From the NCBI GenBank assembly GCA_964016885.1, contig OZ024749.1:24366001-24430000 (forward strand): a DNA stretch of 64,000 bases. Reading direction: 5' to 3'. Positions 1,237-61,128 of the stretch are shown here, piece by piece; position 1 is the stretch's first letter, and each line of letters opens with the position of its first letter. The notes beneath the pieces were generated by a model. The model saw only the letters and a list, made by a program, of their open reading frames with translations, made no database searches and was not told where the DNA came from. Position numbers and translations under genes: made by a program. Origin of the DNA: Eledone cirrhosa. Its lineage: Eukaryota.

Positions 1237-1415
1237 TAGGAAAATGTTTGACCCCGAGAGCTCAAGCCGTTTCGGCCCCTATTTCTGGTGGTCTCGAAAC
1301 GGCTTCAGCTCTGCCGTCTGGGTCAAAGCATTTCCTATTACCCACTCTACTACGCTAATATTGAGTACTCTGGTGCGTTATGGTCCATCTGGTTCCTCAC
1401 CTCACCTCCTTCGTT
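1237..1415. mobile_element. Family H1 hairpin-plus-tail insert (PLE-type terminal fragment), diverged copy
   Basis: Homologous to 12161-12348 and 49252-49455; imperfect inverted arms aggaaaatgtttgacc/ggtcaaagcatttcct, tail ending ccttcgtt, TA flanks. Confidence 0.75.
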
Positions 1416-3075
1416 ATATATATATATATATATATTTATATGTATTAATAAGTACTCGGATATAACTATATATATATATATATATTCATACATGTGCCTG
1501 TGCTCACATGGATGTATGCGCGCGTTCTTTTCTTTTTTAGACATGTTGCTCACAAACTCTGTCCATTTAGTCCTGAATTTGTTTTTATCCTTCAAAATGT
1601 TGTACTTCTTCACTATCTTTATTTTGTTCTCTTTTCGTAACATATTTTCTACCTTCCTTTGTTTTATGTATTCTAGGTGCGTTAGGTATTTCAGCTTTGT
1701 TGCTTATCACCAAAGTATATTACTTTTGTCTGCATTCGTAGCTTTAGTTAATATATAGTATCGAAAGTACCGTACGTATCAGGTTTTCCCCATTAACTTC
1801 TCTCATATTTAAAGTTTCTAACGACTGAAAAATGATAGCAGAAAAAAATTGTAGTGTACCCATGATAAGCTTATAACTTTATAAATACATAGGACTATAC
1901 ACAACACATTCACTTTGGACGTCCCCCTCAGATAACAATGATCTCACCAAAGCAATATAGCGGACACATTTTAACATGTCCGCCACTCGACTAACAATAA
2001 AGAAACAAAGAAAGAAATTCTGACACTGTAAGCAGATACGCTAGCTACAGTTTCACTTCGGTAAAGATGTATCTCAAAGAAACACTAACCTATGAAATTA
2101 ATAGCCTCTTATGTATCTGGAATACTGTAAAATTGACACACTAGAAAAACTTAAAGAATACCTTCTGATAAACTAAATCACCTATAGCACTTACACACCG
2201 AGGCGTCATATCTTTACGAATAACTTTAGCCAAACATCAACGAGTTTTTATCGGACACAAAACAAGAAACTTTCTAATAGAATCTATTAAACGCAGATAC
2301 ATGTATATCTCTTAAGAACAACTTGCAGCTATTATCAAAAAGGGTAAATTTCAATTGAACATCAATGTTAATAACATAAATTCACCAGTGAACATTAACT
2401 GGCCATAAAAATAGTTTGAGAATGATGTAAAATATCCTGTAGAAAATATTCATCTGTCTAAAGTAAAGATGATATGGTCACGACTTGAAAGCCCTAAATC
2501 CATGTTGACCATAAAAACACTCCTTGATTTCAAATACTTATAATACCAAAACTTAAATGAATATTCTTCCAATATTTGTGACTGCAGTTGCATACACTAA
2601 CAAGGTTTCTTTCCTCGTTTGAAGTATTAACTCAATCCGCTAGGTGGCATTATAATTCAAGATGGCTTTCACTCCACAACGACGTAACTGTTGTGATTTT
2701 GTGGTCACCCTGTATAACTGATATCAAAAACAATAGTTTCCGAACCAGGGAGTATTCACATCCCTTATACATATTATAGACAATTTTTTCTCTCACCATT
2801 TCTCTTCTTTTTCTTTTTTTTCCTTCTTCCCCATCCTCCTCCTTTTCTATTTCCGTCGGTATGTCTGAACTCAGACATACCGTGGGAAATCTTTTTCTTC
2901 ACCAACATAATACTTGGAATTTCGTCGGGGCAGAGTTCTGTCGGAAGGAACCGTCTCCAACTGATCCAACTGGATCCCAAGGCGAAACCAACCGAACTCA
3001 AGGATGTTAACCATTAATTTACTCAGAACAAACCACTGGGTATCCTGCCCTCTCTCATCCTAATATATGCCAACG

Positions 3076-3286
3076 TAGGACACATTTAGGTAATATTAGT
3101 TGCAGCTCAGTGTGTCTAACAGAAAGGTAAGGCAGTCTTATTTCCTGGGGAACTGCCGCTGGGTCACCTGTCTTCGCTCGCTATCCCTCCTAACATAAGC
3201 TACCATTATATAAATGTAGGATGTATTTAGGTAATATTATTTGCAGCTCACTGTCTCTAAATGAAATGTGAGGTAGTCATCTTATT
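3076..3286. repeat. Degenerate direct repeat (~65-bp core, ~141-bp spacing)
   Basis: gtagga...tttaggtaatatta.ttgcagctca.tgt.tctaa occurs twice. Confidence 0.6.
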
Positions 3287-57750: not shown

Positions 57751-58830
57751 TCTTTTACCTGTTTCAGCCATCCGGCTGAGGCCATGCTGGGCCACCGCCC
57801 TTGTTGCTATACATTTTATCTCCAGCCTGTATAGGTTGGCCACTGGTGTAAGAGGGAGTTTGTTGCTGCTGCCCTTAGGTTTCCCTCGTGTCTTGCTGTG
57901 GGCTCATCCGGGATCCTGGACAACAAGGCGTCGAGATGTTTCTTCAAGACATCCTCCTCCACGTCATGCAAATCTCTCATATCCCTCGGCAGCCTGTTGA
58001 AGTGTTGAGGGCCTTTGAATCCCAGGCTATTGCAATACCTGCTTCTTATTCTAGATGTGGAAGACGGGACCTTTGGCACCACACGGTGACGTCCTCTTGG
58101 ACGGTTGATCCAGCTCCCAATGCCAAAGTTTGGTGCTAGTCCCTCCAGGATTTTCCACATGTAGTCACTGCGTATCTCTCCCGTCTTCGCTCCAAGGAGT
58201 AGAGGTTCAGTTCCTTTAGCCTCTCCCAGTAGCTTCTCTCCCTCATCTTGGCAATCCTCTTGGTGTAGCTTCAATGGATTGCCTCAAGCTCCGTGGTTAG
58301 TTTGACACTATGGGGTGACCACAACTGGGAGCAGTAGTCCAGGCGGCTTAGGACAAATGTACTCCATAGTGTCGACATGGTGTCTCGATCTCTTGTCCGG
58401 AAAGTCCTCAAGATCCAGCCAGCGAGTCGTCTGCACATTGTCGCCACTTTCATGATGTGTGAAGAAAAAGATGCATCATCGCTCATGTTCATGCCAAGGT
58501 CTCGTATCCATTTTGACACGGGGATATCGGTCGCTCCTGGTCCTGTGTAGTTGTGTTCCACTATATTTGTGTTTGCAGGTTTGTTTGGAGGTTTGTATTG
58601 TAGGGCTTGGAACTTGCCAGCATTAAACTGCATGTTGTTTTCTTCCGCCCATTTGTATATGGCATCCAGATCCTGCTGTAAAAGGGCAGCGTCAGCCGGG
58701 TTTTTGATTGCCTGTGCTACCTTAGTGTCATCAGCATAGCTATGAGGGCATGTCTGAGAGAGCCACCAAAAACAGTAGTGGTCCCAGGACTGTCCCCTGG
58801 GGCACCCCACTTGTTATTGGTGTTTCCTTT
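57751..58830 (-). pseudogene. CR1/L2-group LINE 3' RT fragment
   Basis: [33 protein letters not shown]...MQFN..K, RDLG, SRLDYCSQLWSP; frameshifts. Confidence 0.88.
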
Positions 58831-59041
58831 GATATATATATATATATATATATATATATATATATATATATATATATATATATATATATACACACATATA
58901 TATACACATACACACACACATATATATATATATATGCATATATATATATATATATACACGCACACACACATATATATACTCACATATATATATATACACA
59001 CACATATATATATATATATATATATATGTATATATATATAT

Positions 59042-61128
59042 AGTTTTGCGAGGTTTTTTTATATGAAATCGTGTGTCGAAACAAATATTGTTATACTTGG
59101 GGAGGGTCATATTTGTGTAATATTGCCAGAATTAATAACAGAACACACTCACTGTTTGGTTGGTTTTCGCTTCTGTGTCTTTTATATGGGTAATCTAATT
59201 TATTCGGTCCTCAATGTTGCCATTGACTGACCAACGGTCAAAAATAATACAGATACAATATAGACACAAACACATATATATATATAGTTTATCAAAGTTA
59301 TTTGGTTGCACATCTGCAACATCGTCAGTGGTGGTATTGTTTCCTCCCGTTACATTGTATGTCTACGCCATCTTTATTTAGTCTGTTTATATATTTATTT
59401 ATTTATTTGTTTGTTTGTTTATTTTATTTTGTCTTCTTTGCGCATGCGTTTGCGTGTGTGTATAGTGATTTGTTTGATATGTGTTCGTAATTGGTTGACT
59501 GTGTATTGGTTAATGTATTTTATCTTTACTAGTGTGTGTTTATATGTGTTTGTTGTTATTGTGCTTGTGTATGTATTTATTTATTTATATATTTATGTAT
59601 GTATTTATTTATACTTCTCTTAGGTCAGTGTTGCTTGTTTGGGTGTTGTTGTTATTCCATTCATTCTTTCTGTTTAGTCTTGGCCTTCTAAGTTCTATGT
59701 CACATGCCTCTCTGATTTGCCTATCTGCTTGTTAATTTCTATGTTTAGATATTATTCTAATTTCTATGTTGTCTATGTTACCGTCGTGTTGTTGTCTGGA
59801 ATGTTCGTATAGTACTGATCCGTTTTTTCGTCTTTTCAGTTCCCCCCAGTGTTGGTCTATCCTTTCACCTATGCTACTAGCTGTCTCGCCTATGTATGTT
59901 GTTGTCATGTTTCTGCAAGTACCCTCTGTACATCTTATGCTATAGACTACGTTTCCAGTTTTACAGTTTATCCGGGAGTTTACCTTACATATGATACATT
60001 TGCTATTAGTACAGTGGGTTTTCTTAAAAGGGTAGGTTTTGATGATCAGGGATTTTATGGTGGTTCCTGGCTTTTCTACCACCTTAATCTTTAAGTGGGT
60101 CTTTCTCAGGGCCTTTCTACACTGGTTAGCTAATTTTCCTCCAGGGGTAGCGTCCACAAACATGACACTCTGGTATCTCTGGTTGTCGTACCATGAGGGG
60201 GCTTTCCCTCTCTTATGTCGAGCCCTATCTAAGCTATTCCATGATTTGCTCCTGTATAATGGGCAAATTCCTTTCATGTTCAGTTCTATGAGGGTCTTAT
60301 AATTCTCCATGTCTCCTTCGTATACTCTGACTCTGTCTCTTTGGTTGTAGTCAGAGAACTGCATGCGGTTGATGAAGTGTTGGATGTTTCTTTTTATTTC
60401 TGTAGGCTCGCACATGCGGGCCACATTCTTCACCACTCGTACCAAATCTGCGATCAGAATATTAAACTTAGCACTACTGGACATTGCTGAGTTTTTGAGT
60501 ATCAGGTATTTGGAGGCCATGGGTTTAGCATAGTCTAAGTGGAGAATTTGGGCTCTCTCATCTATAGTGTTAATCCAGAGTTACGTGTCTAATACAGGTA
60601 GTCTATTTTTAGGGTGTTTGGAAGGGTAGTCGATAGTTACAGTTATACTCTGGTGTATGGAATTAGCTATCTGCTGGATGCTTTCCATTGTACTACGTTC
60701 TAAATCAAACTTGTTAGTGCTCTCTAGTGGGGATGTTCTTATAACTATATTGATTTCGTCTACGTAACGAGAGTAGATGTTGAGGTCTATGGAGCTCTCA
60801 TTAATGAGATCTTTAAGTCTCCTTTCCCACCATACTATAAAAAGTTTGGCAACATCACCAGCACGGGAGGAAACAATAGCACCACTGACGATGTTGCAGA
60901 TGTGTAGCGAAAGAACTTTGATAAACTATATATATGTGTTTGTGTCTATATTGTATCTTTATTATTTTTGACCGTTGGTCAGTCAATGGCAACATTGAGG
61001 ACCGAATAAATTAGATTACCGATATAAAAGACACAGAAGCGAAAAGCGAAAAGCAACCAAACAGTGAGTGTGTTCTGTTATTAATTCTGGCAATATTACA
61101 CAAATATGACCCTCCCCAAGTATAACAA
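59042..61128. mobile_element. Family P1b PLE: tailed long arm (minus) plus inverted short arm (60863-61128)
   Basis: 60863-61128 mirrors 59086-59350; HHR at ~60881-60923 plus (CTGACGA-t-gttgc..gtagc-GAAAG-aa-CTT). Confidence 0.9.
59610..60862 (-). pseudogene. PLE RT C-terminal half + GIY-YIG with stops
   Basis: AGDVAKLF.VWW, YSRYVDE, ILIADLVRV, YIGETA; collinear with the P1 ORF. Confidence 0.9.

Follow-up and report, generated by a model that had tools for sequence, protein, structure and literature searches.

Penelope-like elements (PLEs) are known to carry inverted pseudo-long terminal repeats (pLTRs) with a tail optionally present on one of them, a layout for which self-priming on an antisense template has been proposed (PMC3846280); resolution by the endonuclease (EN) has been suggested for the tail, and the origin of the inverted repeats and of the one-sided tail has been named as an open task (PMC8557442). 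In vitro, Anolis carolinensis Poseidon cuts and extends both strands of an AT-rich target, as a predicted dimer acting on RNA from the junction of pLTR and open reading frame (ORF), with two reverse transcriptase (RT) start sites that bracket the tail; the steps after initiation are left unvalidated in that account (PMC11167929). The available portions of PMC13282606 hold nothing on structure. Here we describe a 64,000-nucleotide stretch of Eledone cirrhosa (G000:C9:24366001-24430000 of a 3.0-Gb assembly; hereafter the window), AT-rich animal DNA crowded with (TA)n tracts into which elements of several families have inserted. By their motifs, on which the clade assignments rest throughout, these inserts are PLEs, P1 with Neptune-type and H1, N1 and N2 with Hydra-type motifs, and nearly all of those with two visible ends obey one rule of end pairing.

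Reading the sequence and comparing it with itself revealed 14 head-to-head inserts in the window whose 3' ends face outward into TA, and each of them has one arm that stops at site A, fixed within the family, and one that stops at a further site B, on the far side of a short tail (Table 1). The original prediction had counted about 15 such inserts; the 14 are there, and the orphan at 6784 has a single visible terminus. The second orphan, at 25263, does have A on its left and B on its right, and a second copy of it was found. Either arm can be the long one, as had been claimed (B at 14906 and 59043; A at 44441, 45807 and 54111), sizes do span 74 bp to 6.4 kb, and neither A+A nor B+B inserts occur within the window. 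The statement that each insert is two-armed was too strong: those at 12589-12648, 13139-13978 and ~23323-23703, absent from the original prediction, are single-armed.

The two sites are defined by tandem copies that read past them. In P1 they are aacaatat^cggtt (A) and gaaatat^cgtaag (B), which have the motif AATAT^CG in common, and in H1 ttcctat^taccc (A) and ttcgttat^ctag (B). The P1 B site is fixed as predicted; its usual end is ...cagaaacgaaat, 3 bases longer than had been stated. At the read-through sites of P1, H1, N1, N2 and the 591-bp family, 2-5 nt fit both the element and (TA)n, and in two other families only 1 nt is common to both. Tails here are ~43-160 nt long; no stem-loop shared by A and B emerged, the tail RNAs folding no better than shuffled sequences (z -1.4 to 0.6). 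Genome-wide, exact termini followed by TA number 13,052 for A and 11,557 for B. Loose H1 ends running into (AT)n at both A and B are also present in raw DNA reads from three reduced-representation runs, and the termini are therefore not assembly artefacts.

We sampled the pairing of ends outside the window through seeds, short exact core patterns upstream of A, which match 26,960 times for P1 (a very abundant repeat genome-wide), 10,386 times for H1, 4,491 for N2 and 251 for N1. DNA was taken around the first 100 P1 matches, most of the first 100 H1 and N2 matches (40 clusters or fewer each beyond the first 30) and the first 30 N1 matches, together with 200 kb adjoining the window; the contigs sampled for pair counts were C1 and C9. 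Inserts of the A+A kind, and long B+B ones, are not selected against by seeds that lie upstream of A. Outward-facing termini were matched up by a script, which gave 53 P1, 59 H1 and 43 N2 rows. Five rows with an internal TA tract of at least 18 nt were dropped, three of them A+B as they stand, one comprising two separate A+B inserts and one a tiny A+B insert plus a separate arm, and the window's own rows and two local duplicates were left out of the outside counts.

Among the P1, H1 and N2 inserts with two termini outside the window, 140/142 are A+B, two are B+B and none is A+A (A+B by family: P1 46/47, H1 57/57, N2 37/38). Independent choice of ends would give at most 50% A+B, and the excess over 0.5 has a binomial p of ~2e-39. 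N1 agrees, with A+B in 10/10 inserts that have both ends visible among the 30 loci. The exact-terminus lists yielded ~23 further P1 A+B candidates, of which 16 were fetched and 16/16 confirmed; all four new A+A or B+B candidates from these lists were read, and one proved a real B+B insert, the third overall. No A+A insert was found in the window, in the outside samples or among the exact-terminus candidates. Five rows that appeared to be A+A became A+B on reading by hand, being diverged subfamilies or internal tandems, and the A+A or B+B candidates L235, L162, L005, L222, L251, L252, L254 and three on C9 were likewise lost on reading. The rule also predicted correctly that the previously unseen far end of the tandem insert L109 would be A. 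On these samples, A+A and B+B pairs are thus not common and termini are not randomly placed; the fixed A and B termini, their coupling and the freedom of either arm to be long, all first described in the window, hold in independent material. A family-blind scan of 264 kb uncovered several more families with end offsets of ~43-160 nt; an end-to-end inverted match was present in 82/231 segments, many of them of low complexity. Two high-identity segments of that scan without an offset turned out to be the inside of an A+B N2 insert and a larger inverted duplication.

At L130-L132 (G000:C1:11226212-11232026) an H1 insert contains a tandem unit of ~3.1 kb, and its outer ends are again B and A. Around G000:C9 ~24603900-24607500 lies a large inverted duplication that is symmetric past its TA tracts. 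In L098 (G000:C1:18886100-18891100, ~1770-4708) ~150 bp of the window-6784 family are fused to a long P1 A arm and face outward into TA; this may be an insert made from the RNAs of two families.

The A+B pattern is real and general in this genome, and it is not obligate. Beside 47 pairs, the seeded loci hold 32 unpaired P1 arms (20 A, 12 B), eight of which have a TA run at the 5' end. Two of the 32 are one B...A pair 4 kb apart, and other unpaired arms may in some cases be broken old pairs. Since both A and B end single-armed inserts, each can prime alone. The prediction had called twin priming obligate, and this part of it fails on two counts: inserts with a single arm are common (about 30 P1 arms lack a partner, and at least eight of them have TA at the 5' end), and three B+B inserts exist. 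Two-armed inserts outnumber single-armed ones without being the sole class. In the three B+B inserts the arms are non-identical, and one of them pairs two clearly different subfamilies. At L078, L271 and L079 (G000:C1:13323214-13335152) a P1 B arm and a P1 A arm, both close to full length and 100% identical over the 365 nt checked, have ~4 kb of other repeats between them, which may reflect later insertions, captured DNA or inversion.

Arm lengths and junctions were compared in 138 A+B inserts, a set that includes the window rows and leaves out two duplicates and three uncalled H1 rows. In 52 inserts the A arm extends past the B arm on the 5' side by more than 20 nt, and in 24 the B arm extends past the A arm by that much (p=0.002); in the other 62 the two are within 20 nt of each other. 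Eleven B arms end inside the tail. Junctions are distinct in P1 48/48, N2 34/34 and H1 51/56, and the variable internal junction that had been proposed is borne out, identical ones being rare. Twenty are blunt, 27 share 1 nt, 16 share 2-3 nt and 10 share at least 4 nt, with 1-5 filler bases in a further 21 and more than 5 unassigned bases in 44. Within an insert the two arms resemble each other closely: P1 arms differ at a median of 2 positions per 120 nt within inserts vs 9 between inserts (n=25), and N2 arms at 1 vs 6 per 110 nt (n=26), comparisons that are not independent and whose p-values are only indicative; for H1 the comparison was uninformative. Three long P1 A arms (window 18421, L067 3116 and L098 1919) start within ~10 nt of each other, in a zone directly downstream of a low-complexity Asn/Thr-rich coding stretch that is a possible RT stop hot spot. 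Mirror-image A+B pairs occur in L222 (2664-3920), where the junction is shared, and in L252 (357-402 and 7275-7320), apparently as local inverted duplications.

What best fits the fixed termini, the A+B pairing, the greater length of either arm, the distinct junctions with little microhomology and the near-identical arms, all directly visible in the copies, is a form of twin priming. We consider it probable that one protein-RNA particle cuts (TA)n and that both DNA ends prime on one RNA, at the A and B sites bracketing the tail. In such a reaction the two 3' ends made by a single particle would pair by a few bases with A and B and both be extended. The cDNAs would grow towards each other's 5' ends, and the B-primed cDNA could advance only by displacing the A-primed one; B arms would for this reason be the short ones more often. 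Synthesis of each would end either at random or where the RNA runs out at its 5' end, and the two would be sealed head to head by end joining. Priming by only one end would leave a single-armed insert, and the rare B+B inserts could come from two particles. It may well be, and we stop short of expecting it, that EN+ PLEs across clades normally integrate by twin priming on a single RNA at two fixed sites, with the tail as the spacing of two RT active sites on one template and the inverted pLTRs as a direct product, not a repair accident.

Of 112 H1 arm ends, 77 cluster at TTAGTC, at a distance of 54-66 nt upstream of A; this TTAGTC is located 30 nt below TATTTAAATA. TTAGTC, which we take to resemble an initiator, would then mark the H1 transcript start ~60 nt upstream of A. 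Short H1 inserts would arise from priming at A and B sites lying near the transcript 5' end: both cDNAs would run off at the start site, hence the many short inserts. N2 is a second family with a preferred 5' limit, both arms reaching ~175-190 nt upstream of A at eight loci on G000:C1 (L158, L166, L228, L232, L234, L238, L242 and L247).

An unlikely alternative is that the B-primed cDNA folds back and copies itself as far as A, where protein or RNA still covers the tail, with the centre of the palindrome trimmed later; this is related to the self-priming model of PMC3846280. It directly explains both A+B pairing and arm identity, and it suits the 62/138 inserts with arms within 20 nt of each other, the near-perfect palindromes L204, L158, L168 and L209 and the several P1 junctions that lie within the element's own AT-rich palindrome. 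However, for the 52 inserts whose A arm is the longer it requires deletions on one side only, up to kilobases in size, and the arms of such inserts can still be identical despite unequal length (765/765 matches between an A arm of 2547 nt and a B arm of 765 nt); trimming ought not to fall preferentially on the B arm (52 vs 24); and A-only inserts show that A is used without a B arm. The longer A arms and the 11 B arms that end in the tail cannot come from plain fold-back of a B-primed cDNA. Improbable, in our judgement, is resolution of a DNA intermediate by the GIY-YIG domain, cutting at A on one arm and at B on the other. The motif common to the two P1 sites could serve for cutting as well as for priming, but tail boundaries have been mapped to RT start sites on RNA (PMC11167929), and cutting alone does not forbid A+A, yet none was seen. 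Least probable of all is that a ready-made A+B palindrome is copied into RNA in full, (UA)n flanks included, and inserts again, with hairpin skipping varying the junction. A few identical junctions do occur, in local duplicates (L031 25089/27076, L199 55/224 and the mirror pair in L222), but nearly all others are distinct, the long microhomology expected from template skipping is rare (at least 4 nt in 10/138), and how the rule arose in several families that are unrelated is left unexplained.

Several points weigh against twin priming on a single RNA. The bias towards longer A arms reaches significance only in the pooled set and in H1 (P1 p=0.28, N2 p=0.12), and a limited number of natural copies served as references for calling arm ends, which accounts in part for the 44/138 junctions with more than 5 unassigned bases. 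An arm's own partner is its closest or tied match in only 15/25 P1 and 15/26 N2 comparisons, and arm identity could stem from one source locus, from fold-back or from later gene conversion. The arms of two of the three B+B inserts differ by 3/183 and 1/43 nt, within the A+B range. Palindromes are known to lose their centres after insertion, from which unequal arms and varied junctions could result, and all the evidence consists of fixed genomic copies. Finally, the Poseidon experiments saw the same start-site use on both strands and no target homology (PMC11167929).

The assignment to PLEs draws on coding motifs and layout. The P1 ORF (15464-18493) has YVDD followed by ...NVVYSIRC..C..IVYIGET..R...ER..EH, consistent with a single-ORF RT plus GIY-YIG protein; its RVT_1 match has E=3e-4, under the curated cut-off. 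The N-terminus of the P1 protein is found in L109 and L210. A Pfam scan of six ORF pieces gave no family for five, and the GIY-YIG domain, without a Pfam match, is known by motif. Neptune elements have a CX2-5CxxC linker and a CCHH motif in the C-terminal EN (PMC8557442), which P1 fits with its linker CIDKKCITC (CX4CxxC) and a C..C between the GIY and YIG half-motifs; Nematis has the same linker, and P1b is placed with P1. Hydra elements are described by an RWK-like motif, DKT, a CxCX5C linker, no CCHH and a (TA)n target (PMC8557442, section 11). RWR and DKT are present in H1 and N1 and DKT in N2, with a CNC(X5)C linker in all three; H1, N1 and N2 fit this clade because of DKT, the linker and the lack of CCHH. 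The pLTRs are in partial tandem or inverted layout, as in EN+ PLEs, and a DNA transposon or miniature inverted-repeat transposable element was rejected on the offset termini, variable lengths and RT-EN ORFs. In P1 the tail falls in the first ORF codons, with an ATG located ~20 nt upstream of A opening the frame that the L109 read-through follows.

The sites had been placed downstream of a hammerhead ribozyme. This agrees with putative cores, recognized by motif, upstream of A in P1, P1b and N2, and stems I and II of the P1 motif form in the predicted fold; a motif search near the H1 sites found no core. No hammerhead was among the 150 listed of 455 Rfam matches, the listed ones being microRNA-like and on TA repeats.

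The remaining features of the window are of several kinds. The N1 insert at 24118 is interrupted by TA tracts and by the insert at 25263, and has a broken ORF at 26172-28586 on the minus strand. An ORF of 1029 aa (31470-34559, plus strand) has endonuclease- and RT-like motifs of the non-LTR kind; beyond it lie duplicated 3' ends (34725-35057 and 35733-35923), and L210 holds a similar copy. Two copies (90%) of a tRNA-like short interspersed element adjoin TA tracts at 21992-22206 and 49000-49214. More TA-flanked repeats with direct terminal repeats lie at 49556-50400 and 50499-53718, the latter with a broken Hydra-type ORF inside it on the minus strand (51353-53091).

Table 1 Arms and inserts located in the window.
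Feature	Position	Strand	Description
H1 (Hydra-type) insert	1222..1414		A left (16-bp terminal duplication), B right
P1 mini-insert	4743..4816		B arm left, ending within tail; A arm right
Orphan family	6784..7277		One terminus at TA and degenerate inverted segments; A+B unconfirmed
H1 A+B insert	12159..12348		Arms reach 55 and 56 nt upstream of A
Single-armed H1 insert	12589..12648	+	Stops at A; counter-example to 'obligate'
N2-type mini-insert	13004..13123		B left, A right
N1 arm	13139..13978	-	Stops at A; 31-bp internal inversion at 5' end; without B arm
P1 B arm	14906..18416	-	5'-truncated; 3451 nt upstream of A plus tail; carries RT/C-terminal GIY-YIG ORF (15464-18416)
P1 A arm	18421..21303	+	2883 nt; 99.96% identity to B arm over 2387 nt; 4-nt junction filler
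Hammerhead-like motif, P1 pLTR	21102..21146	+	CUGAAGA, stem II, GAAA; mirror copy ~15162 on -
Single arm with hammerhead motif	~23323-23703		No partner arm
N1 (Hydra-type) insert	24118..30445		B left, upstream pLTR, inverted A arm right
Short palindromic insert, another family	25263..25622		A left, B right; tail ~70 nt
N2-type insert	37397..37668		A left, B right
591-bp tandem array with inverted arm	38734..41336		B left, A right; tail ~159 nt
P1b insert	44441..45507		Long A arm left, B arm right
N2 insert	45807..48701		A arm ~2590 nt left, B arm right
H1 insert	49252..49456		B left, A right
P1 insert	54111..54320		A arm 134 nt left, B arm right
P1b insert	59043..61129		Long B arm left, A arm right

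The A+B rule, in at least four families with Neptune- and Hydra-type motifs, ties the two start sites known from in vitro work to single insertion events and can be put to sharp tests with an in vitro system that already exists. Curators can use it to set the boundaries of a very abundant class of repeats, and twin priming, if true, would explain a PLE layout long known but unexplained. A search of the open-access literature turned up no model of PLEs based on twin priming or paired ends. What appears to be new is that A and B are coupled nearly strictly, along with the reading of this as one-RNA twin priming; the elements and their layout were already known.

In LINE-1 twin priming, reportedly described by Ostertag and Kazazian in 2001, two target ends prime on one RNA and the joined cDNAs produce an inversion. 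There the second site is variable, the cDNAs cover different parts of the RNA and the inserts concerned are a minority. The process proposed here works like twin priming but not in its LINE-1 form: both sites are fixed, 43-160 nt apart, the cDNAs and the arms overlap, and two-armed inserts are the larger class. For PLEs, the consulted parts of PMC8557442 and PMC3846280 describe an optional tail of 30-40 bp without counting pairs, and the models put forward there are self-priming or EN resolution; by comparison, tails here are ~43-160 nt, pairing is near-strict, and the tail or the greater length can be on either arm. Two internal RT start sites that bracket the tail and an AT-rich target are common to these elements and Poseidon, whose mapped start sites the original prediction had overlooked; the corresponding portions of PMC11167929 do not link the two sites within one insertion or explain the inverted arms, and they report an absence of target homology. 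Unlike in Poseidon, 2-5 nt at both sites match (TA)n here, and the clades differ.

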